Below the pieces are notes generated by a model that saw only the letters and a program-made list of their open reading frames with translations, was not told the origin of the DNA and made no database searches. This document shows, piece after piece, positions 500 through 21,274 of a DNA stretch of 24,943 nucleotides. How positions within the stretch are numbered: the stretch's first letter is position 1; every line of letters starts with the position of its first letter. The stretch spans positions 1 to 24,943 of IMG/VR virus record IMGVR_UViG_2534681742_000001; one strand, given 5' to 3'. The translations under genes were made by a program, and so were the position numbers. Source of the DNA: a virus (taxonomy: Duplodnaviria > Heunggongvirae > Uroviricota > Caudoviricetes).

Positions 500-1690
500 T
501 TAATTGCTGTTAACCGAGGTGACCAGATTTGCCAGGTATTTATCGGTAATACGCTGGCGCAGGGTCAGGTTTTCAAGAGGAGGCACCGGTGTATAGTCGT
601 AGTCGATATACAGTTTTCCGGCCTTGAGGGTTTCCGCATCGTTGGATTCTTCGCTGAACCAGCAGGTCGCATCCACGATATAGCCGTTTGTTTTCAGCTC
701 ACGGAATTTGGCATTGATGCCGTCAACGATGTCGCGAATCAGCGTTGCGGTGATGGGCTTGTCCACCGCCCACATGTGCGCCTCAGCCATCGTGTCGGCC
801 AGCACCTGCGCGGTGCGGGTGTAGTTTTCAAAAAGGAACAGCGGGTCATCAGAGCAGGTACGGTTACCCCAGAAGCGGAAACCGTCACGGCGAATCAGCG
901 TAGTGACGCCTGACTCGTTAAGCAGGTCAGCATCGGTGCCGGACTCCTGCAAATCCCAGAATACAGAGGCGCTGATGCCGGTAACACCGTTCACCCCGAC
1001 ATTGGACAGCGTTTTATGCCAGCCCTGCTCCTGGTCAATTCTGGCACGCAGACCCAGCGCACGGGCGGTGGCATACGCGGTGGCGGTAGTACTGGTGACC
1101 GTATCCCATGCGAGGAAATCCGGCCAGATGACCATCAGCTCACGCTGGCTGAAATTCTGACGGTAGGCTTTCACCTCGGAAATGGTTTTACAGTCCCATG
1201 CGCTGATATACCCGAAAGCGCGCAGCTTCTGACAGACGGATGCCAGTGCAACAGCCACCTCTTTGGTGTCCAGTCCCGGCACACCGAGAATACGCGGTTT
1301 AACACCGGTTACCGACTCCGCCGCCAGCAGGGCTTTCAGTCCGGTGTACTGACCATTTTCGTCGGTGGTGCCGATGATATTGGAAACGGTCTGCGCGAGT
1401 TTCGTTTCCTCGTCGTCGCCGGTGCCGTCTTCCACACGCACGACAACGGTGACCGGTTTTGACTGGTCAGCGATGGCCTGCAACGATGCCGCCAGCGTGC
1501 CTTTTTTACCGGCCTTTGCAATCGCGCTCTGCACATTGGTGATCAGCACCGGTTTATTGACGGGGAAGGTTTCCGCATCCGCATCGCTGGCCGTGCAGAC
1601 CATGCCAACAATGGCGGTGGATACGGTGGAAATGACGCGGGTGCCGTCGTTAATCTCCAGCACCTGCACGCCGTGATGATAGTCACTCAT
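500..1690 (-). CDS. FI: Contractile tail sheath protein
   Basis: 396-aa track ORF MSDYHHGVQVLEINDGTRVISTVSTAIVGMV..., recognised as P2 FI; sits immediately upstream of FII as in P2. Confidence 0.9.
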   Translation of the reverse strand: MSDYHHGVQVLEINDGTRVISTVSTAIVGMVCTASDADAETFPVNKPVLITNVQSAIAKAGKKGTLAASLQAIADQSKPVTVVVRVEDGTGDDEETKLAQTVSNIIGTTDENGQYTGLKALLAAESVTGVKPRILGVPGLDTKEVAVALASVCQKLRAFGYISAWDCKTISEVKAYRQNFSQRELMVIWPDFLAWDTVTSTTATAYATARALGLRARIDQEQGWHKTLSNVGVNGVTGISASVFWDLQESGTDADLLNESGVTTLIRRDGFRFWGNRTCSDDPLFLFENYTRTAQVLADTMAEAHMWAVDKPITATLIRDIVDGINAKFRELKTNGYIVDATCWFSEESNDAETLKAGKLYIDYDYTPVPPLENLTLRQRITDKYLANLVTSVNSN

Positions 1691-1749
1691 CCGTTTAACT
1701 CCGTGGTTAATGGGTGAGTGTTATTTTCAGTTGTGCCGGAGATGTCAGG

Positions 1750-2343
1750 CTATTTGTCCCGGTTGGCTAAGGGATGACACAATTTATTCTTTGCCGCTGA
1801 TGAGGGGAATTTTTTATAGAGCGTGGACAGGCCAATATCAAAAATCAGCGCCACGCGTTGACGTGATTCACCCGCAGCCAGCAACCGTCCTGCCTGTTCC
1901 CACTCACTCGCGGTGAGCTTCGGACGTCTGCCACCAATACGCCCTTTGGCTCTGGCCGCTTCCAGTCCGGCGCGTGTCCGCTCGACAATGAGTTCTCGCT
2001 CCATTTCAGCCAGGGCACCCATCACATGAAAGAAAAAACGCCCCATCGGCGTGCTGGTATCAATAGCATCTGTCAGGCTGCGAAAATTAACACCGCGTTC
2101 GCGCAGTTCCTCAACCAGAATGACCAGATGCCGCATACTACGCCCCAGCCTGTCCAGCTTCCAGACTACCAGAGTGTCACCTGCTGATAATGTTCTGAGC
2201 AGTTTTTTCAGTCCCGGTCGATCGGACTTAGTGCCGCTGATTTTATCCTCAAAAATCAGCTCACATCCTGCACACTCCAGCGCATTACGCTGCAATTCCG
2301 TGTTCTGGTCATTTGTTGATACGCGGACATAGCCAATAAGCAT
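1750..2343 (-). CDS. Serine recombinase, Hin/Gin/Cin/Pin-family DNA invertase
   Basis: Internal start MLIGYVRVSTNDQNTELQRNALE... (ATG at 2343-2341) with catalytic Ser in the VRVSTNDQ motif, the FFFHVMGALAEMERELIVERT core and a C-terminal HTH (STLYKKF). The 236-aa track ORF carries an N-terminal extension that is probably not translated. Confidence 0.85.
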   Translation of the reverse strand: MLIGYVRVSTNDQNTELQRNALECAGCELIFEDKISGTKSDRPGLKKLLRTLSAGDTLVVWKLDRLGRSMRHLVILVEELRERGVNFRSLTDAIDTSTPMGRFFFHVMGALAEMERELIVERTRAGLEAARAKGRIGGRRPKLTASEWEQAGRLLAAGESRQRVALIFDIGLSTLYKKFPSSAAKNKLCHPLANRDK

Positions 2344-2442
2344 GATGGATCCCCTGAATAAAAACCGGAGATGATGCCAGTTAGCCGTTATCTCTGCATT
2401 TTCATAAACGTTGGTTTGGGAGAAGCGGCGAAAAGGGATGTG

Positions 2443-2787
2443 GGTAACGGGCAAAACCAAATTCCTGATATGTCAGCGTGGGAGTGTGGGGGAGATACAA
2501 CGACGGGATGGAGGCGAAGCCCGGATGGTTATATTGAACAATGGGGGCTAACTGGGGGCACAACAAATGAAGTTTTGATTAATTTTCCTATCCCATTTCC
2601 GACAGCCGTCATTTCTATTAATGAACATGACCAGGCTCCTGTGGCAGGGAAAATGTCAGTATGGCAATTCTATAAATTGACTAATTCAAATGTCATAGCA
2701 GAGAACCTGGGATCTCTTGATAAAGGAAATCCATCCTTCAATGTTCCAACTCTCGCTGGTTGCCGCTGGTTTGCTACAGGAAGATAA
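2443..2787 (+). CDS. Silent alternative tail-fibre C-terminal cassette (no start of its own; would fuse to the H constant region after inversion)
   Basis: Open frame ending TAA at 2785-2787, opposite strand to H, immediately followed by its own tail-fibre assembly gene. This is the arrangement of Mu Sv' and the P1 C segment. Confidence 0.5.
   Translation, partial: GNGQNQIPDMSAWECGGDTTTGWRRSPDGYIEQWGLTGGTTNEVLINFPIPFPTAVISINEHDQAPVAGKMSVWQFYKLTNSNVIAENLGSLDKGNPSFNVPTLAGCRWFATGR
2446..2472. repeat. Candidate invertase crossover site (left copy of an imperfect inverted repeat)
   Basis: AACGGGCAAAACCAAATTCCTGATAT; its reverse complement resembles 4080-4106 (shared AAATT-CCTGAT core). In frame it encodes N-Q-I-P-D, matching N-K-L-P-D at the equivalent point in H. 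Confidence 0.4.
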
Positions 2788-2788
2788 A

Positions 2789-3229
2789 ATGAGTAAATAT
2801 CTTTACGATGCTAAAACTAATATGTTTTACCCATTTACTCTGGAAAGTCAGTATAAGGAGTCTGGGTTATGGCCTCATAATGGAGTTGAAGTTGATGAGG
2901 ATATATTTATTAAGTACCTGTCCCCACCTCCAGGGAAAGTGAGAGTTGCGGGTGATGATGGCTATCCTGCATGGGATGACGTACCGCCGCTAACTCATGA
3001 AGAACAACTGTCAGAAGCGGAACGAAAAAAACAGGCACTCATAAATCGAGTTAATGAATATATTAACAGTAAGCAGTGGCCAGGAAAGGCGGCTATTGGT
3101 CGTCTGAAAGGTGAGGAACTGGCGCAATATAATTTATGGCTGGATTATCTGGACGCACTGGAACTGGTTGATATTTCCAGTGCTCCAGATATTGAATGGC
3201 CTACGCCTCCGGCTGTTCAGGCCAGATGA
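2789..3229 (+). CDS. Tail fibre assembly chaperone (alternative copy, partner of the silent cassette)
   Basis: ATG at 2789 preceded by AGGAAG; MSKYLYDAKTNMFYPF...; C-terminus LWLDYLDALELVDISSAPDIEWPTPP parallels the other chaperone's VLDYIDAVTATDTSTAPDVIWPEQP. Confidence 0.7.
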   Translation: MSKYLYDAKTNMFYPFTLESQYKESGLWPHNGVEVDEDIFIKYLSPPPGKVRVAGDDGYPAWDDVPPLTHEEQLSEAERKKQALINRVNEYINSKQWPGKAAIGRLKGEELAQYNLWLDYLDALELVDISSAPDIEWPTPPAVQAR

Positions 3230-3803
3230 CATCCGGCGCGGTGCTGGTATCTGTTGCCGTCACCGCGTCAATGTAATCCAGCACAGCGTTAAGGCGGGTT
3301 GTTTCTGCCTGCGTCAGTTTACGTCCGGCCTGCAATTTCAGCTGAATCAGACTGATGGAGGCCATTGCAGTATCAATCAGCGACTGGCGCTGTGCTTCTG
3401 CCGCTTCTACTGCGGCGCTATGCTGTGCCTTAGTATCCGTCACCCATTTCTCACCATCCCATTTATCGTATGGCGTTAACGGGGCGATATTGGTTGTATT
3501 ATCAGGGTAATCACCCGGAGAGGTGATTTCTTTTGATTCACCTGTTTCGGTGCTAAAGACGATTTCACCGCGATGGTCTGGCACATATTCCCATGAGTTA
3601 AAATCTGCAGATCGGCAGATTGCATAACCATCTTTGTATGCGCCTGGAGCATCTAAACAGGAACATGCCGGAATGCCGACACCAACGGCAAGATATTCAT
3701 TTGAAGTGGAAATATATTCCCGTGTTTCGCCATCATAGTTATAGACGGTAATATTCCCCGCCTTTGTAGCAATAAACTCGCTATTTAATACAGCGTTATC
3801 CAT
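3201..3803 (-). CDS. G: Tail fibre assembly chaperone (expressed copy, P2 G / Mu U-like)
   Basis: 200-aa ORF directly downstream of H, with start ATG overlapping the H stop (TAATG); Tfa-like C-terminal motif. Confidence 0.8.
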   Translation of the reverse strand: MDNAVLNSEFIATKAGNITVYNYDGETREYISTSNEYLAVGVGIPACSCLDAPGAYKDGYAICRSADFNSWEYVPDHRGEIVFSTETGESKEITSPGDYPDNTTNIAPLTPYDKWDGEKWVTDTKAQHSAAVEAAEAQRQSLIDTAMASISLIQLKLQAGRKLTQAETTRLNAVLDYIDAVTATDTSTAPDVIWPEQPEA

Positions 3804-5065
3804 TATGCAGCCCTCACGATATAGTTAAATGCGACGTTGCGCGGCCGGGTTTCAGAACCACCAACCGATACCGTAGAAATTGAATTTGCCGTAATAAGTT
3901 CCCCGAAAGCATCAGCCGTAACTACTAACCGACCTCCCGTTGGATCAAAACTTTTTAGCGCATAGTACTGGTCAAACCAGTGCCCATGAGAAGCAAATAA
4001 ATGGCCTTGAGATGTCAACAAACCACGAGAGGAATCCACCCCGCGCCCATCATCCCATCCACGAATAAATTCACCGCGTAAATCAGGCAATTTATTTGTC
4101 GGGTAAGCCTTTGCCAGTTCCGGGTATTCTTCAGCAGAAAAAGCCGCACCATTGCATTTCAACCAGCCTGTTGGCGGAGTGGCTGAAGGCCACGGAACAG
4201 GCACCCCAACAGGTAATGCTGAGCCTTCTCCCAAACCAAGGTATGCGAGAAGACCAGCAACATCCTTTCCGCTCAAATGAGTCAGCGTCTCATCCAGTGG
4301 CTGCTTACCTGACAGCGCATTGTTAATGGTGGTGCTGAATTTCGGGTCATTGTTAATGGCCGCGGCAATTTCTTTCAGTGTGTCCAGTGTGGCTGGCGCA
4401 CCGTTAATCAGAGCGGTAATAGCGGCCTGAACAAACTCAGTGGTCGCAATCCGCGTGGTGTTATTTCCTGCGGCAGGCGTCGGCGCTTTTGGTTCTCCGG
4501 TAAATGTCGGATTATGTTTCTGCGCATACTGGGTATGAGGATCCTGTGCGGCAATGTGGTTTCTCATCTGGTCATCCACATACAGCTTTAATTCCAGGAC
4601 TTCATCATCCACGTATTTACGGGTTGCCAGTACCACCGACGGGTCGATTTTCAGCGTGATAGCTTCGGTATTCGTGACAACCAGAATCATGCGGATAGTC
4701 TGGGTACGACCACTGCCTTCCTGCAACTGCGGTTTGTACGTTTCCGGGCAGTTCGCCACCGCAATGAGTACGCCTTCATCATCATAAAGCCCAATCTCAC
4801 GGATCCAGAATCCGCCCTCGTTCTCAGGGATGATTTGCTCCGCAATAATCTGGCTCTGGTTGTTCGGGTCAACACTCAGAAGATTCAGCGACGCGATGCG
4901 TTTCTGGTTAATCAGTTTTGTCTGTGCCGGGTCTGGTGTCGGCAAGACACCATTCGCATCACCAACGGCCATTTGCGTCAGATTCAGCTTACTGCCGAGC
5001 ATCGTCGCGTTAGCCAGCCGTGCCGCGCCCTGATTAGTCAGAATGGCGTAGTATTTCACTGTCAT
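3803..5065 (-). CDS. H: Tail fibre protein (constant N-terminal region plus the currently expressed variable C-terminus)
   Basis: 420-aa ORF with N-terminal region ...EIGLYDDEGVLIAVANCPETYKPQLQEGSGRTQTIRMILVV... typical of P2 H-like fibres; followed by tfa. Confidence 0.85.
   Translation of the reverse strand: MTVKYYAILTNQGAARLANATMLGSKLNLTQMAVGDANGVLPTPDPAQTKLINQKRIASLNLLSVDPNNQSQIIAEQIIPENEGGFWIREIGLYDDEGVLIAVANCPETYKPQLQEGSGRTQTIRMILVVTNTEAITLKIDPSVVLATRKYVDDEVLELKLYVDDQMRNHIAAQDPHTQYAQKHNPTFTGEPKAPTPAAGNNTTRIATTEFVQAAITALINGAPATLDTLKEIAAAINNDPKFSTTINNALSGKQPLDETLTHLSGKDVAGLLAYLGLGEGSALPVGVPVPWPSATPPTGWLKCNGAAFSAEEYPELAKAYPTNKLPDLRGEFIRGWDDGRGVDSSRGLLTSQGHLFASHGHWFDQYYALKSFDPTGGRLVVTADAFGELITANSISTVSVGGSETRPRNVAFNYIVRAA
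4080..4106. repeat. Candidate invertase crossover site (right copy, inside the H coding sequence)
   Basis: Reverse complement TTACCCGACAAATAAATTGCCTGATT resembles 2446-2472. It lies at the H codons ...AYPTNKLPDLRGEF..., i.e. at the predicted constant/variable boundary. Confidence 0.4.
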
Positions 5066-5673
5066 GCGTTTACTCTCAGGTTATCAATTAAATGAATGGC
5101 CGAGGCCGGGAAATAATCCCCTCCGACAATAATGGCCTCCGGGGTGTAGGGATAAACCGTCAGGGCGTCACCGTGATAGCATCCCGCACCGGCAAAAATG
5201 TTGCCGGTTGTACTTAAACTGATAGCCAGTCCCGTCAGATGGCGGCTTGCCGGTTTTGCATCAGCAACGAGGCGCTCCAGCTCCTGATACATTTCCTCGG
5301 TAATACCCTGCTCAAGCACGCCAACAACGATGCGGAACGTCCCCGGCTCCTCGTTGAGCTGCCACCACTCCCTCACCTCAATCAGATAGCCGAGCGGCTC
5401 CACCACACGACGGATTGCGCCTATAGTGCCCTTATGGCAGTGAATGAAATAGGCATCGCGGATAACAGCGCGTTTTGTCGCTTCCGGCCACTTATCATCC
5501 CAGCGGTCAACCGAAAATGACCACGCCAGCCACGGCAGCAGATTTGCCGGACAGGTATCCGGGTTCCACAGCTCACGAATACTGACCGGCGTTTTTTCAA
5601 TTTCCGCACAGGCTCTTGCGGCGGCGACTTCAAGCGGTGATGAGCCGGTCGGCAGCAGGCGCGAATCACTCAT
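5062..5673 (-). CDS. I: Baseplate assembly protein I
   Basis: 203-aa ORF MSDSRLLPTGSSPLEVAAARACAEIEKTPVSIRELW..., recognised as P2 gpI; syntenic. Confidence 0.85.
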   Translation of the reverse strand: MSDSRLLPTGSSPLEVAAARACAEIEKTPVSIRELWNPDTCPANLLPWLAWSFSVDRWDDKWPEATKRAVIRDAYFIHCHKGTIGAIRRVVEPLGYLIEVREWWQLNEEPGTFRIVVGVLEQGITEEMYQELERLVADAKPASRHLTGLAISLSTTGNIFAGAGCYHGDALTVYPYTPEAIIVGGDYFPASAIHLIDNLRVNA

Positions 5674-6574
5674 CCGAGCCTCCGGTCACGACGCTGTATT
5701 CGGTGCAGAAAGACGCCTGCGTACTGTTGAGCACGATGTCGGCCAGTGGTGCAGTCAGCTCGACACGCTGCACGCCTTCCACATGCAAAGCGGCATAAAT
5801 GGCAGACAGACGGATGTCGCGCCCCAGCCGGTGCTGTGCCGTGATGTACGCTTCCAGTTTTTTCACGGCGGCAGCGCGTATAGGTTCGCTTTCGGGACCA
5901 GGGTAAAGGTAAAGCGTGGCGTTTATCTGGTATTCAACGATGGCGGCAGACTGCACGGTCACGCGGTCGGCCACCGGCCTGACGTCCTCGCCATTAAGGG
6001 CGTTACGCACCACGGCCAGCAGGTCTTCGGATGCAACACCGTTATTTTCACGTGACAGCACAGAGATGGTGACGCAGGCCGGAGACGGACTGGTTACAGA
6101 AATATCCGCGACACGCCCGTCGGCACTGCGACCATGATACTGATAAGCACCCACCGACCCGGCGACGCTTAAGCCCTCAAACGCCTGCTGAATACGCAGA
6201 CGATAATCGGTGTCAGACTCCATCACTGCCGGTGTCGGCGGGATAGTCGAATCATCTGCCGGGGTGATAATCAGGCGCGTGGTGTTGTAATTGGCACCAA
6301 TCACATCAAGGTCATTACCCGCGGCACAGGCCAGCATCACCGCCCGTGCGGCCTCATTCACACGCTGACGCCAGATAAGCTCACGATAAGCATTTTCCTC
6401 CAGCAATTTGACGAGAGGCTCGGATTCCAGCGTCAGGGTACGGGCGACCGCCTCCTGCTGGTCTTCCGGGTAAAGGGAAATCAGTGTCGCCTTGCGTTCG
6501 GCGAGAATGGTTTCAAAGTCCAGCTCCTCGACCACATCCGGTGCGGGTAGCTGGTTCAGGTCGATAATCGGCAT
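5666..6574 (-). CDS. J: Baseplate protein J
   Basis: 302-aa ORF MPIIDLNQLPAPDVVEELDFETILAERKATLISLYPE..., P2 gpJ-like; syntenic. Confidence 0.9.
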   Translation of the reverse strand: MPIIDLNQLPAPDVVEELDFETILAERKATLISLYPEDQQEAVARTLTLESEPLVKLLEENAYRELIWRQRVNEAARAVMLACAAGNDLDVIGANYNTTRLIITPADDSTIPPTPAVMESDTDYRLRIQQAFEGLSVAGSVGAYQYHGRSADGRVADISVTSPSPACVTISVLSRENNGVASEDLLAVVRNALNGEDVRPVADRVTVQSAAIVEYQINATLYLYPGPESEPIRAAAVKKLEAYITAQHRLGRDIRLSAIYAALHVEGVQRVELTAPLADIVLNSTQASFCTEYSVVTGGSDE

Positions 6575-16993: not shown

Positions 16994-17140
16994 CGCCCGC
17001 TTCATGGGGTGGTTTTAATGCAGATGCACGAACACGCCGGAAGCGCGCCAGCACCAGCGGCGCTCACACGTGACCGGGAAGGAAAATGCATGCGATTCGA
17101 TGCAGTAATGCATGCAGAGCTAAAAATGGCAGAACATACT

Positions 17141-17179
17141 GAAAAAACGCATAAAAAACCGGCATTCAGGTTGCCGGTT
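17141..17179 (-). terminator. Rho-independent terminator ending the early/replication operon
   Basis: Minus-strand reading AACCGGCA-ACCTGAA-TGCCGGTT followed by TTTTTTATGCGTTTTTT; about 145 bp downstream of the last coupled ORF. Confidence 0.6.
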
Positions 17180-17323
17180 TGAGTCGGCTTCATTGTGGTT
17201 ACTGGCCGCGCTATGCGCCAATAATACCAGGAGTCAATCTGATAACCAGCTAACGCCTCGCTACGCTCGTTGTTCAACCCCGCCAGCCCTGAAAACAAGT
17301 TTCACGACTGGCGGCGTTCTCTA

Positions 17324-17527
17324 TCATCTGCGTGGTGGTGACATAACTCTTGATTGACCGATATGATTAAACCGCCCGTAATTATCCCGGACTATTTCGG
17401 CACACCCGACCAGCTCATCGGGCGTCAGATTTTCGTTGACCATAATCCGCTGTAAACGCTGAACAATAGCCATCAGCTTGATATTTTTAGTTTTATGGTG
17501 CGGTATCTCGCATGGTATTCTGTGCAT
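17324..17527 (-). CDS. Hypothetical small protein (67 aa), translationally coupled to the upstream DUF3850-like gene
   Basis: ATG at 17527-17525 overlaps the upstream stop (TAATG); MHRIPCEIPHHKTKNIKLMAIVQRLQRIMVNENLTPDELVGCAEIVRDNYGRFNHIGQSRVMSPPRR; AT-rich relative to the core genes. No homology recognised. Confidence 0.35.
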   Translation of the reverse strand: MHRIPCEIPHHKTKNIKLMAIVQRLQRIMVNENLTPDELVGCAEIVRDNYGRFNHIGQSRVMSPPRR

Positions 17528-17982
17528 TATCCAAGCCACCCGTTTTGCTGTGCACGCTCCATCTGTTCATCTGAATAGTTCCATGCTCCATCCGTGGCAA
17601 CCATTGCCCCGCCAGACATCCCCGTCTCTGGTTCATACATAACAGCAAGGCCGAGCTGATGCATAATTTCATGATTAATTCTGAATACCAGACCACGCTC
17701 ACTAAGTTCTTTCCAGTTCACAATCTCATATGCGCCTGTATTAAGCAGCTCAATACTTAGCAAGACATAATCTTCCAGCCAGTCTGACAGGTCAGTAACA
17801 TCTGTTATCCGGGCTTCAACCTTTCGCCCCGTATACACACCCTGTACCCATTCATGCAAAATCAACGTGTCCCCGCGCTCATAATTACGGTCATTTTTCC
17901 GAAACTCTGCGCGTTTCTTTCCTTCCAGCACAAGGTCAAAATATTTGGCGTGCAGCTTTACCTCGTGAATTTTTGCCATCAT
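17527..17982 (-). CDS. DUF3850/ASCH-like (PUA-fold) domain protein with a unique C-terminal extension carrying an HExxH motif
   Basis: Start MMAKIHEVKLHAKYFDLVLEGKKRAEFRKNDRNYERGDTLILHEW... overlaps the A stop (ATGATG); the N-terminal ~75 aa fit the DUF3850 pattern as I recall it; the C-terminal ~70 aa contain INHEIMHQLG. Confidence 0.6.
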   Translation of the reverse strand: MMAKIHEVKLHAKYFDLVLEGKKRAEFRKNDRNYERGDTLILHEWVQGVYTGRKVEARITDVTDLSDWLEDYVLLSIELLNTGAYEIVNWKELSERGLVFRINHEIMHQLGLAVMYEPETGMSGGAMVATDGAWNYSDEQMERAQQNGWLG

Positions 17983-20270
17983 TTCCACTCCATTACTGTT
18001 GAGAATCCCGGCCACTCATCAGCGACCGGATACGTGAATTTTTTCCCGTCATAATTTACGGTCGCGCCACGCGCCAGCGCCTCAAGCTCCCATCGCTGCG
18101 GCCTGATACCGTTCTGAGCAAGGTCAACGCGGATACGGGTAATTTGCATTCTTTCCGACCGGGTCAGTCTGGCCGATGGTGCAATTTCATGTGGCTTTAA
18201 CGGGCTTCCGTTTCTTTGCTGACGGTTTGGCGTTCGCAGGTCGTGTTTTAATGCGCCCCTGAGCGCCCTCACGACCTCCGGTTCATTCCATTCAATAACA
18301 CCGTCATCAACCAGATTAAGCACTGCTGCGGCGTGCTCAGAAGGTGTGGGAGCCGGTAACGAAGCATCACCGCCGGTGAGCTTTCCACAGTTATTGACAG
18401 GACTCCGAGGCGCGGCGATGCCGCTTTTTAAAGTCAAAGGCTCAACGACCGGAACTTTCGGCACAATGCGCCAGTCCGTCGTTCTGGTGATATGAATATG
18501 ACGCGCGCCGAGATGCGGCGCGTAAATGCCGACCACTCTCTCGACTTCTTCCTCGTATTCGTTAACGTCATCCGACGGGCTACGGGCGACCCTGACAGTC
18601 TGACAATCGCGCGGGACATTTGCCCCGCCCTGCGCGCTGATATACAGCGCAAAATCGCCACTGTCTGCGGCGGCGCGTGCAGCCTCCACGCGTTCGTCAA
18701 ATTCATCAGCAATGCTGACGCCGCGAGGCAATTTACGTAGCTCACGGTAAGCTCCCATTGTCGGCAGGCCAACCGTTTTAAATTGCGGGATGCGCCACGT
18801 TGACGCCCATGCGGTAACAGCCGCCGCAGTATCTTTCAGCGGTCTGCCGGTATCGTTATCGAGCTGACCATCCAGTGCATAGCCGTCGATATTTTTTGAA
18901 ATGTATTTCGCGATATATCCCGCAGCACCGCCCCGGTTAAGGTGTTTTGCCTGAAAACGGTTTCGCGCGGCTCCTCTTTCGTCGCCATCCTCTTTGAGCG
19001 CATAGCGATGCATGATTTCGATAATCTGGTTACGCTGGCGTGGATTACAAAAAAGCATCATATGCCAGTGCGGCGTTCCGTCGTGGTGTGGCTCGACGAC
19101 TCGCAAACCGTAGACCTGTAAATCATTATCCTTGAATGCCGTGCGCATCAGGCTCCAGATACGGCAGAGATAACGCTGCGCATCCTTCGGATTAAATGCC
19201 TCATCATTCCAGCCGTGATTAAGCTGGACGGTTTTACTTTCGCCTTTTCCGACCTGACGTGTCGGGTGATACTTTGACGGCGCGGTCAGCGTGATAAACA
19301 TCCCCACATCACCCTCTGCGGCGGCGTAACGCTCAATACCGGCAATGGTGTTCATCAGCTCCATCCGGCGAATTTCAGGATTAGAAATACTGCCCATCAC
19401 CTTACTGATAAGGTCGATGCGTTCGCCGGTTTCCCTGTTTTCAAGGTCACACGATTTAAGAAACTCCAGATTTGCCTGACGGCGCGCACGCACATCACGA
19501 ATGGCATGTTTACTGGCATAAGGAGAACGGTCTTTATTGACCTCCCCGACAGCTATCAATAACGCCTCATGCCAGCGCATACGCTGGCCTTTAAGCTGAT
19601 GAGTCCACCACTCATCGTTAAACAGACGGGCAATGGCAGAATATGCCTGCCTCGTGGTCATCTGTCCTTTACGGTATTTTTTCCAGTAAAGCGGGGAAAT
19701 ATTGAAAGCACGTGCAGCGCCAGCAACATGACCATACAGATGCGCCTGCGCCTCATCCGTAAACAGCGATACTTTTTCGCCATGCGCATCCACCCAGGCA
19801 TCGCAGAGTTCCTCATACATCATGAAAAGCTGCGATGAGATACGGGCGGCAAACTTTTTCAGCTCCTTGTCATTCATTCCCGGCAGGCGCGCATAATGGT
19901 CACGCTCTGCCAGAAACAGCAACGACGCGTCGGTGTTCATTTCATGGCGCTGATTCACACGCTCAATGCGCGGCCATAAACGACGCTGAAAAGTGGATGT
20001 GAGGAAATAAAACCCGTGTACCGGGCTTTTATTGCGCCGGATGTAGTCATAGCGTGAAGTAAACAGCGAGCGCAAAAAGTAAGGCAGGCGGTTAATCGTG
20101 GATAAAACACCTTGCACCTGACGCATCTCGTCACGTGTAAGGGGTCTTTCGCGCCCGACGGCCTCGCGTGGCGCGTTCCATGCATAAGCACCGGTAAACG
20201 CCTTACCGGTGCCTGCAGCAAATGCTGACGGAGGTACGCAGGTGTATTGCTCCTGGAAAGAATGACTCAT
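17979..20270 (-). CDS. A: Replication initiation endonuclease A (rolling-circle initiator)
   Basis: 763-aa ORF, size and sequence character of P2 gpA; position between the early genes and cos. Confidence 0.9.
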   Translation of the reverse strand: MSHSFQEQYTCVPPSAFAAGTGKAFTGAYAWNAPREAVGRERPLTRDEMRQVQGVLSTINRLPYFLRSLFTSRYDYIRRNKSPVHGFYFLTSTFQRRLWPRIERVNQRHEMNTDASLLFLAERDHYARLPGMNDKELKKFAARISSQLFMMYEELCDAWVDAHGEKVSLFTDEAQAHLYGHVAGAARAFNISPLYWKKYRKGQMTTRQAYSAIARLFNDEWWTHQLKGQRMRWHEALLIAVGEVNKDRSPYASKHAIRDVRARRQANLEFLKSCDLENRETGERIDLISKVMGSISNPEIRRMELMNTIAGIERYAAAEGDVGMFITLTAPSKYHPTRQVGKGESKTVQLNHGWNDEAFNPKDAQRYLCRIWSLMRTAFKDNDLQVYGLRVVEPHHDGTPHWHMMLFCNPRQRNQIIEIMHRYALKEDGDERGAARNRFQAKHLNRGGAAGYIAKYISKNIDGYALDGQLDNDTGRPLKDTAAAVTAWASTWRIPQFKTVGLPTMGAYRELRKLPRGVSIADEFDERVEAARAAADSGDFALYISAQGGANVPRDCQTVRVARSPSDDVNEYEEEVERVVGIYAPHLGARHIHITRTTDWRIVPKVPVVEPLTLKSGIAAPRSPVNNCGKLTGGDASLPAPTPSEHAAAVLNLVDDGVIEWNEPEVVRALRGALKHDLRTPNRQQRNGSPLKPHEIAPSARLTRSERMQITRIRVDLAQNGIRPQRWELEALARGATVNYDGKKFTYPVADEWPGFSTVMEWK

Positions 20271-21274
20271 TCACATACACCGGCATAGACACTACTGCAA
20301 ACTGACTTATCATTCACCGAAGCCAGCAAATCAAACTGTGCCCCGCCACGCGTGGTCATCGCCCAGTCACGATAAGACTCAATTCCGTAAGCATCGACAG
20401 TAATAATATCAATGCGGCGTTCCGCACGACGCGGGTCATGAGTTGACGGGAAGAAAGTAGAATTTCCGCGTCTGGAGCATGCGGCGACAAGTCGCTCCCA
20501 TTCCGCAACACGCTTAACCTCTTCCGGCCAGCGACTAAAAATTTCAGCTAATTCAGACTTTCTGGCGTGGATGCAGGGCATACAACCGACACGACTGCAT
20601 CCCTGCTGGTATAACGGATTAGGTTTAATTCCATGACGTCTTGCAAATGCAAATACCTCCTCATGCGTCCAGTTCAGAATAGGACGGTATACATGGAGCC
20701 CGGGCGTATTGTCCGCATCCTCTTCCCAGGCAGGCAGACCCGCGCGCGCAGGAGACTCCTGAGCGCGAACCCCCTGCCAGCTAATTACCTCATCAAACTC
20801 ATTAAGCGCAGGTAACACGACCTGAGTACGTACTGGCTCATGTTTAAGGTCAAAAGTGCAAAATCTGGCTTTAGTGGAAGGAAATCGCCCTTTCCACATG
20901 CACAAATCAAGAAATGGGATACCAGTAGGCTTGAGAATTTCCAGCGCACAATTGATGCGCTCTGCCGCTTCCCCCGGAGACATTCCGCACTCTTCAACCA
21001 GAGAAACAGGCCATTTCTCAGCAATAAACTTGCGCTTACCTTCAATCTGTCGGGAGAAGTCAGCTTTAACCCGTTTAACCGGCCCGAGTCGGTTCTCCAG
21101 ATAATCGAGATACTCCATTGTCTGCGGATGCTCATGCCCGGTGTCTGCAAAAACCGGCAAAAAATGCACACCGCTTTCAATACCAACAAGCCATTGAGCA
21201 AGGCTATCCTTTCCGCCAGAAACAGAAATAATATTGATAGAGCTTTCAGCTCGGCAGCGGGTATCAACTATCAT
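20267..21274 (-). CDS. PAPS reductase-family PP-loop protein (DndC/CysH-like fold), function unknown
   Basis: SVSGGKDS PP-loop motif near the N-terminus; cysteine cluster CSRVGCMPC; ATGA-coupled to the flanking genes. Confidence 0.7.
   Translation of the reverse strand: MIVDTRCRAESSINIISVSGGKDSLAQWLVGIESGVHFLPVFADTGHEHPQTMEYLDYLENRLGPVKRVKADFSRQIEGKRKFIAEKWPVSLVEECGMSPGEAAERINCALEILKPTGIPFLDLCMWKGRFPSTKARFCTFDLKHEPVRTQVVLPALNEFDEVISWQGVRAQESPARAGLPAWEEDADNTPGLHVYRPILNWTHEEVFAFARRHGIKPNPLYQQGCSRVGCMPCIHARKSELAEIFSRWPEEVKRVAEWERLVAACSRRGNSTFFPSTHDPRRAERRIDIITVDAYGIESYRDWAMTTRGGAQFDLLASVNDKSVCSSVYAGVCE

Follow-up and report, generated by a model that had tools for sequence, protein, structure and literature searches.

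The tail-fibre locus of the 24,943-nt window, i.e., the whole stretch of DNA that was analyzed, is very probably (roughly 90%) a site-specific DNA inversion switch of Pin/Gin type, by which a P2-like (Peduovirus) prophage would alternate its tail fibre. The genes and the paired crossover sites are present, inversion preserves the fibre reading frame, close relatives have inverted at these exact sites, and inversion of a homologous module in EPEC has been published (PMC4272514). A switch of this kind is already well known and ordinary and the idea is not new; an invertible module in the P2 Z/fun hotspot was noted previously (bioRxiv 10.1101/2024.10.15.618418). The useful yield is a corrected anatomy, namely the real crossover sites and the real extent of the swapped fibre tip.

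The initial annotation had described a Mu-G-segment-style invertible tail-fibre locus with a Hin/Gin-family serine invertase at the P2 Z/fun place, made up of H, chaperones, invertase and a silent cassette, and our open reading frames and Pfam/PHROG domain assignments agree with this general reading and with the gene layout. The tail fibre gene H (3803-5065, minus strand) carries a Phage_tail_fib N-terminal domain and a Collar domain. Its constant part, residues 1-276 (4240..5065, minus strand; Pfam Phage_tail_fib N-terminal, 8.3e-63), aligns collinearly whichever way round the segment lies in relatives and is followed by the variable C-terminus that is expressed now, residues 277-420 (3803..4237, minus strand), consisting of GLGE at residue 277 and 140 further amino acids, with the Pfam Collar domain at residues 287-334. 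Two cassette-and-chaperone sets lie head to head in the segment: the chaperone expressed now, equivalent to P2 G, is at 3201..3803 on the minus strand (Caudo_TAP, 1.4e-33; PHROG_105, 3.8e-98), and a silent chaperone, cognate to the alternative tip, is at 2789..3229 on the plus strand (Caudo_TAP, 3.1e-34; PHROG_188, 2.1e-58). The silent alternative fibre C-terminus, GLGE plus 120 amino acids (2413..2787, plus strand; Gp53-like_C, 2.8e-12; PHROG tail fibre families), belongs to the AAKR..NQIPDM cassette class with a Gp53-like_C fold. This cassette had been called startless; however, its reading frame extends to an in-frame ATG ATG at 2371/2374, outside the segment. Genes of P2 type for I, J, FI, gpA, Cox and integrase were recognized from reading frames and domains, with the sheath gene FI at 500-1690 on the minus strand. 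Alignment to the annotated P2 region 17555-17652 placed a homologue of the P2 late promoter P_F, comprising the activator site, transcription start region and leader to the FI ATG, at 1691..1791 (minus strand), the homology beginning at about 1788. In P2 itself, H and G come first, followed by fun(Z), P_F and FI; since fun(Z) lies between G and P_F/FI there, the module occupies the Z/fun slot, as had been proposed.

The invertase gene (1750..2343, minus strand) encodes an intact, 197-aa serine DNA invertase of the Pin/Gin/Hin/Cin family with Resolvase and HTH_7 domains. Profile searches matched Pfam Resolvase (2.9e-52), HTH_7 and a PHROG DNA invertase family (2.9e-100), and comparison with the Gin structure 3UJ3 gave 1.7e-94. 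It shares 87.3% of its residues with e14 PinE and 79.3% with Mu Gin, and it is 99% identical to the invertase of the P2-like prophage in E. coli W. MLIGYVRVSTNDQ (YVRVSTNDQ) contains the catalytic Ser9, and the protein has the composition of a Din-family (Gin/Hin/Cin/Pin) recombinase, with the active-site serine in an N-terminal catalytic domain and an HTH at the C-terminus. Translation starts at the ATG at 2343, and the TTG at 2460 given in the list of open reading frames is an over-extension. A simple scan found no sigma-70 promoter between the proximal crossover site and this ATG, and across 1600-5200 it returned 4 sites vs. 4.4 expected, making it uninformative. A terminator-like hairpin (2382-2363) was observed in the same interval between site and ATG. 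The invertase also bears a tail of ~14 codons that is absent from Gin and Pin and overlies the Ogr/activator-binding site and adjoining downstream sequence; accordingly, the P_F homologue overlaps the stop codon and these last ~14 codons. Transcription of the invertase and P2-type activation of the tail operon from P_F might conceivably interfere with one another, an unlikely arrangement that, if true, would couple when, or how often, the fibre switches to whether the phage is in its lysogenic or lytic state.

Two 26-bp crossover sites of hix/gix/pix type, inverted relative to each other, with a 12-2-12 architecture and identical AA/TT cores, bracket the variable DNA. The invertase-proximal site, TTTTCATAAACG-TT-GGTTTGGGAGAA, lies at 2399..2424 (core TT, 2411-2412), and the distal site, TTCTCCCAAACC-AA-GGTATGCGAGAA, lies within H at 4226..4251 (core AA, 4238-4239); both encode G-L-G-E. 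The repeat 2399-2425 / 4225-4251 matches at 22/27 positions and was both the top match in the repeat search and the unique best local window pair. It contains an exact inverted 15-mer, TTGGTTTGGGAGAAG (2411-2425 / 4225-4239), with 2 copies in 24.9 kb vs. 0.08 expected, and a degenerate 26-bp site pattern matched these two places only, vs. 0.00 expected. Scored against hix and gix (the gix sequences having been verified on the Mu record), both sites reached 17-20/26 and were the best two consensus sites of the whole window. The reverse complement of the proximal site is identical at 26/26 positions to the e14 site adjoining pinE. Of 76 related IMG/VR loci, 70 have this site at 80-81 nt upstream of the ATG of the invertase, and most also have a distal site, inverted, at a distance of 1.6-2.6 kb. 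In their outer half-sites both sites deviate from AAACC (AAACG and ATACC), a deviation shared exactly by relatives that demonstrably invert. A third site, as would be needed for shufflon-like multi-inversion of the kind found in one EPEC prophage, was considered and rejected, the next consensus score being 14/22 vs. 17/22; the 15-mer and the degenerate pattern likewise revealed no further crossover sites in the window, giving two matches only.

Conservation within the invertase gene suggests that a Fis enhancer may lie in its 5' coding region. The candidate recombinational enhancer (2259..2322) contains two putative 15-bp Fis cores, one proximal to the crossover site at 2308-2322 (GTATCAACAAATGAC on the minus strand) and a second at 2259-2273 (GTGCAGGATGTGAGC). 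These were assigned by homology together with the layout of the hin enhancer, and both (15-bp G...C) are conserved at the nucleotide level with Mu gin and e14 pinE. Among 68 unique relatives, synonymous codon diversity was lowest in invertase codons 1-30 (0.55 vs. 0.92 bits). Din-family inversion systems normally have their Fis-dependent enhancer toward the 5' end of the invertase gene, some 100 bp from one crossover site. Here about 97 bp separate the centre of the proximal putative core from the crossover core; the corresponding spacing of the hin enhancer is about 100 bp (PMC3798978).

To describe the product of inversion, we flipped 2413-4237 in silico. H stayed in frame and now read as 276 aa, GLGE and 120 aa to the stop codon; in place of the last 140 residues and the entire Collar domain that they contain, it gained a 120-residue gp53-like tip, and the chaperone was exchanged as well. 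The predicted extent of the swap, previously put at ~95 residues, is 140 vs. 120 residues after G-L-G-E. In relatives, GLGE precedes every cassette. We propose that the invertase (1750-2343) would bind the inverted sites at 2399-2424 and 4226-4251 and make staggered cuts at the identical AA/TT cores, so that the 1,827 bp between them would be inverted, probably with the assistance of a Fis-bound enhancer in the invertase's own 5' coding region. After a flip, ...CATAAACGTT should run into the reverse-complemented sequence that descends from 4237, and the reverse-complemented sequence that ascends from 2413 should run into AAGGTATGCG.... Since the distal site lies inside H at the G-L-G-E codons, each orientation would fuse the constant 276 residues to a different C-terminus, with the chaperone belonging to that tip following it downstream in the shared late operon. 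The Collar-type tip (140 aa, expressed now) and the gp53-like tip (120 aa, silent now) would both be receptor-binding, and the virions then released by a lysogen population would be of two types that differ in adsorption specificity. In the fibre switches of Mu and P1, orientation alters host range. A similar consequence for adsorption or host range may be expected here from the differing folds of the two tips (Collar vs. Gp53-like_C), and in the accessible literature we found no demonstration of such an effect for P2-like phages.

Close relatives have inverted with breakpoints at the cores of these sites. The E. coli W and B-766 prophages are in opposite orientations with collinear flanks (99.7-100%), as are the copies on the MS 198-1 record 'plasmid unnamed2' and chromosome (collinear flanks, 100%), and in both pairs the segments between the flanks match at 99.95% as reverse complements. 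The breakpoints, ...CATAAACGTTGGTTTGGGAGAAG| and |CTTCTCCCAAACCAAGG..., fall exactly at the 26-bp sites. We considered whether the MS 198-1 'plasmid' copy could be an excised or replicating phage; since this record carries the chromosomal genes udk, mdtABC and baeSR together with frameshifts, it is instead an assembly duplicate of the chromosomal region. In a census of 26 IMG/VR loci, the two cassette classes were expressed vs. silent at 13:13 and four cassette pairs were found in both states, and this 1:1 ratio implies frequent switching. Native and flipped queries matched E. coli genomes equally well, and a module with the same sites had at least a partial match in 3,050 of 5,426 complete E. 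coli genomes. For the P2-like prophage of EPEC E2348/69, the measured inversion interval is 2977580-2979467 (PMC4272514 Table S1), and homologous 26-bp sites lie there at 2977568 and 2979454, with the published endpoints on their core dinucleotides. By analogy with these relatives, the present molecule would invert at the same site cores, and we infer that the switch is active in this very genome.

Alternatively, the layout could have been inherited as a frozen relic, with a silent or weak invertase, an idle switch and only the Collar-type fibre in use. The scan revealed no obvious sigma-70 promoter upstream of the invertase and the terminator-like hairpin precedes its ATG, as such a relic might show. 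However, the invertase reading frame is intact and 99% identical to those of E. coli W-type prophages seen in both orientations, neither site differs from its counterpart in inverting relatives, the frames of the silent cassette and chaperone are unbroken, and even the truncated EPEC remnant inverts; we therefore regard a relic as improbable. Less probable still is a general, RecA-type homologous recombination between the two repeats that would leave the invertase irrelevant. Inverted repeats alone can sustain rare RecA-dependent inversion, and a second EPEC P2-like prophage has repeats of 215 bp (PMC4272514), but we reject such recombination here because exact identity extends over just 15 bp, far below what efficient RecA recombination uses; the 12-2-12 serine-invertase architecture of the repeats, their fixed distance from the invertase gene and the 1:1 census also argue against it.

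Finally, the initial annotation had placed the crossover at an imperfect inverted repeat, 2446-2472 / 4080-4106, where the silent cassette encodes NQIPD and H encodes NKLPD, with a swap of about 95 residues. Both peptides exist, an exchange there would be in frame, and the left arm holds CAAAACCAA, similar to a single hix half-site with its core; yet crossover at this place is next to impossible, since the repeat, tested in register and at ±6-nt shifts against all local window pairs, matched at chance level only (10/27 in register, 16/27 shifted by 1 nt, with 58 other pairs equal or better), scored 8-12/26 against hix/gix, and is bypassed by the natural inversions in relatives, which all break at the 26-bp sites. 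Aligning the junctions there revealed no shared crossover core, the clear shared core lying elsewhere: the proposed centres are internal to the segment, 2459 missing its true core by about 47 bp and 4093 by about 145 bp. As for NQIPDM, one cassette class conserves it as a protein motif, and it is not a recombination site.

If the inversion switch is active, a single lysogen could give rise to phage with two alternative receptor-binding tips, a form of bet-hedging with a wider host range, which would be relevant to phage typing, phage therapy and tailocin engineering. It also bears on genome assembly, since invertible segments produce assembly bubbles (cf. MS 198-1).

Among known systems, the P2-like prophages of EPEC E2348/69 and E. 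coli W and the phage records KC618326 and pro483 share the backbone, slot, sites and gene order and differ in sequence only. For the best E. coli match, identity is 94.9% across 94% of the region. The combination of cassettes also differs; E. coli W differs in the window region 3483-4223, and the EPEC copy is a truncated remnant whose invertase is only about 82% identical. The e14 P-inversion system of E. coli K-12 (pinE, stfP/stfE, tfaP/tfaE) has the same order of constant fibre, site, variable tip and chaperone, inverted chaperone and tip, site and invertase; its distal site shares the inner half and the AA/TT core, and the segment between core centres is 1,828 bp vs. 1,827 bp here. However, e14 is a decayed lambdoid element with a pseudogene fibre and different cassette contents, whereas the present module lies between H and FI in a P2-type late operon that appears intact from its reading frames and domains. 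Like the Mu G segment and Gin, the locus has an invertase gene that lies beyond the segment, some 55 nt from the site, as well as 26-bp sites of 12-2-12 architecture, a fusion of constant and variable fibre parts (in Mu, Sc with Sv or Sv') and paired chaperones (in Mu, U/U'). Conservation with Mu also covers the initial ~90 nt of the invertase gene, the stretch in which Mu's enhancer was reportedly placed (Kahmann et al. 1985, listed in PMC3798978). Mu differs in its 3.06 kb segment, its GA/TC gix core (vs. AA/TT), its transposable Mu-type backbone and its much longer cassettes. The Hin/hix system of Salmonella flagellar phase variation shares the recombinase family, the 26-bp sites and, if the candidate enhancer is real, the logic of an enhancer within the gene, and the hixL core is presumably AA, as in the sites here. 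Moreover, an AT-rich element has been named in the hin enhancer (PMC3798978), and the TAATG that separates the two putative Fis cores matches it. Hin inversion, however, flips a promoter and the invertase's own gene, whereas here the invertase lies outside the segment and it is coding sequence that would be exchanged.

The window corresponds to a prophage region of the P2-like (Peduovirus) type, and its minus-strand genes include those for baseplate J (5666-6574), I (5062-5673; Tail_P2_I), fibre H (3803-5065; Phage_tail_fib N-terminal domain, and a Collar domain at residues 287-334), a chaperone (3201-3803; Caudo_TAP), a 197-aa serine recombinase (1750-2343; Resolvase and HTH_7) and sheath FI (500-1690). 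Between the minus-strand chaperone and the recombinase lie two plus-strand features, a fibre C-terminus (ORF 2371-2787; Gp53-like_C) and a second chaperone (2789-3229; Caudo_TAP), and genes for P2-type gpA, Cox, a repressor-like HTH protein and integrase were found farther right. Since the P2 reference carries H, G, a terminator, fun(Z), the P_F promoter and FI at the corresponding place, the extra module fills the Z/fun slot, as the initial annotation had proposed. The silent cassette ORF extends 40 nt past the crossover core (2371-2412) and reaches two consecutive in-frame start codons, ATG ATG, with GGAG before them, and its equivalent in relatives is labeled by PGAP as a free-standing "gp53-like domain-containing protein." Elsewhere, the old/tin hotspot, which separates portal Q from gpA, contains a minus-strand gene for a 162-aa ASCH/DUF3850 and DUF7415 protein (17527-18015; PHROG_1812, unknown function) and a minus-strand 98-aa ORF (17002-17298) that matched nothing in Pfam or PHROG comparisons and is unlikely to be a real gene. 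Replication gene A has immediately downstream of it a gene for a 335-aa PAPS-reductase-domain protein (20267-21274, minus strand; PF01507, PHROG_424), followed by a DksA/TraR zinc-finger and DUF5405 protein and then a second DUF5405 protein.

When 2344-2800 was compared with reverse-complemented 3803-4400, the unique best pair was 2399-2425 and 4225-4251 (22/27), which was also the longest inverted repeat returned by a repeat search (27 nt, 81%). The imperfect repeat initially put forward, 2446-2472 and 4080-4106, matched at 10/27 positions in its original register and 16/27 with a 1-nt shift, a level of at least 16 matches reached by 58 pairs in the same comparison, and its arms scored 8-12/26 against hix and gix; we therefore rejected it as a chance similarity. 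The NQIPD motif, formerly taken to mark the crossover, is instead conserved within one cassette class among IMG/VR relatives. The two 26-mer sites, TTTTCATAAACG-TT-GGTTTGGGAGAA and TTCTCCCAAACC-AA-GGTATGCGAGAA, have the 12-2-12 architecture of hix and gix, show 17-20/26 identities to hixL, gixL, and gixR, and at 2399-2424 (proximal) and 4226-4251 (distal, inside H) are the top two consensus matches across the entire 24.9-kb window. The gix references were verified against the annotated Mu record. The 15-mer TTGGTTTGGGAGAAG, common to both sites, occurs exactly twice, inverted (0.08 expected), and a degenerate 26-bp pattern matched these two sites only (0.00 expected). The inner half-sites are perfect inverted copies of each other. 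On the plus strand the cores read AA and TT, so they match exactly in an inverted-repeat alignment of the two sites. Identical cores are the condition for religation after the 180-degree subunit rotation of serine invertases (PMC3798978).

G-L-G-E is encoded at both sites in both reading frames, and H stays in frame after in-silico inversion of 2413-4237, with residues 1-276 constant and followed by GLGE. The present tip continues for 140 residues (GSALPVG...), including the Collar domain, and the alternative is a gp53-like tip of 120 residues (AAKRDVGNGQNQIPDM...), in place of the exchange of ~95 residues first estimated. Each orientation places the matching chaperone directly downstream of its tip, and the segment measures 1,827 bp between core centers.

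Searches of 5,426 complete E. coli genomes showed that the 3.4-kb region in the orientation of the window (native) and its flipped version each matched the same 3,050 genomes, with 11 (native) and 6 (flipped) at ≥80% coverage and comparable top coverage and identity. E. coli W is in the native state and strain B-766 in the flipped state; their flanks are collinear (one 100%, the other 99.7% identical) and the middle 1,844 bp is reverse-complemented (99.95%). Two records of a single strain, MS 198-1, have flanks that are 100% identical and a reverse-complemented 1,900-bp middle. In both pairs, collinearity stops exactly at ...CATAAACGTTGGTTTGGGAGAAG| and |CTTCTCCCAAACCAAGGTATG..., corresponding to window 2411-2425 and 4225-4239. 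One MS 198-1 record, NZ_CP146689.1 ("plasmid unnamed2," 66,790 bp), carries the segment in the orientation opposite to the chromosome record. Since it contains chromosomal udk, alkA, mdtABC, baeSR, yegQ, and ogrK, several of them frameshifted, along with a P2-like prophage, we rejected it as a plasmid in favor of an assembly duplicate of the same chromosomal region, and we infer that the sequenced culture held both orientations, of which this record is the resulting assembly bubble. Similarity of the window to E. coli W breaks at 3483-4223 and to NZ_CP146689.1 at 2472 and 4034, all inside the invertible segment, indicating cassette-wise mosaicism among prophages that are otherwise 96-98% identical; the window and E. 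coli W have the silent cassette set in common and differ in the expressed tip and chaperone N-terminus.

An IMG/VR search with the invertase protein gave 79 loci, 76 with upstream and 72 with downstream DNA. The proximal site lay 80-81 nt upstream of the invertase ATG in 70 of the 76, a distal inverted site with the same core lay 1.6-2.6 kb away in nearly all loci with enough sequence, and G-L-G-E preceded every cassette. Among two-site loci, 13 had a Collar-type expressed tip with an AAKR..NQIPDM-type silent one and 13 had the reverse arrangement, and four identical cassette pairs occurred in both states. At least eight cassette classes were present, so the crossover sites double as joints of a modular cassette library. 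A P2-type sheath gene directly follows the invertase in 33/72 loci, the remainder being in other phage backbones. Both cassettes of L018 and L020, two of these loci, have the same start (TINLARNAVP...).

The Fis-dependent enhancer search suggested in the initial annotation showed the first 120 nt of the invertase gene to be 77% identical to gin (70% overall). Two candidate 15-bp G...C cores (gene nt 22-36 and 71-85) are kept in gin, pinE, and the window, with a TAATG element between them; an element of this type is named for the hin enhancer (PMC3798978). The proximal candidate core is centered ~97 bp from the crossover core, the corresponding hin distance being ~100 bp (PMC3798978). Synonymous codon diversity among 68 unique related invertase genes was lowest in codons 1-30 (0.55 vs. 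0.92 bits). These features are supportive of, though not decisive for, a candidate Fis enhancer, and relatedness, recombination, and translation-initiation constraints could contribute to the low 5' diversity. At the other end of the gene, P2 P_F homology begins at ~1788 and extends to the FI ATG at 1690, placing the left edge of the inserted module at the promoter. The last ~14 invertase codons (...KNKLCHPLANRDK*) and TAG stop (1750-1791) overlap the homologue of the P_F late-promoter activator site; thus, activator-site DNA and the sequence immediately downstream encode the invertase tail, which is non-conserved and absent from Gin/Pin, and its stop. The proximal site is separated from the invertase ATG by a minus-strand terminator-like hairpin with a T-run after it (AACTGGCATCATCTCCGGTT TTTATT; 2363-2382), which might attenuate late-operon read-through into the invertase.

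Using paired-end sequencing and PCR, Goldberg et al. (2014, PMC4272514) detected inversion in two EPEC E2348/69 prophages that are P2-like: a simple switch with two states and a three-repeat system with four. The simple switch (NC_011601.1 2977580-2979467; repeat TTG(G)TTTGGGAGAAG; PMC4272514 Table S1) has the gene order of the window: fibre tip, chaperone, inverted chaperone, inverted gp53-like tip, recombinase, sheath. With its 26-bp sites starting at positions 2977568 and 2979454, the endpoints given in the paper land on the two core dinucleotides. This module belongs to a truncated remnant (2977243-2978079) that lacks the constant H part and has a partial integrase gene directly adjoining the fibre tip; its segment still inverts, being 93% forward in the published data (PMC4272514). 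Several related IMG/VR loci have three sites. L025, L035, L043, and L074, each with either a third crossover site or a second silent cassette, are multi-inversion (shufflon-like) variants comparable to the EPEC prophage with four states. GenBank phage records KC618326, pro483, Salmonella MET_P1_103_31, and Klebsiella KP12 also have this layout with an annotated DNA invertase. Overall, the feature is real, and with high probability it works as a Pin/Gin-type tail-fibre inversion switch. The general interpretation of the initial annotation stands, but its crossover sites, exchanged length, and implied novelty do not. Elements of this type, where they sit in P2-like phages, and the fact that they invert were all already documented (see also Egorov et al.).

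The window invertase is 99% identical to the E. coli W prophage copy, 87.3% to PinE of e14, the defective K-12 prophage, ~82% to the EPEC copy, and 79.3% to Mu Gin. The proximal site is identical (26/26) to the one next to pinE in e14, whose segment measures 1,828 bp as compared with 1,827 bp in the window. The parts are arranged as in Mu (constant S part, G boundary, Sv-U, U'-S'v, G boundary, gin), and the site-to-invertase-start distance is ~55 nt in both; however, Mu differs in its gix core (GA/TC), its 3.06-kb segment, and its backbone.
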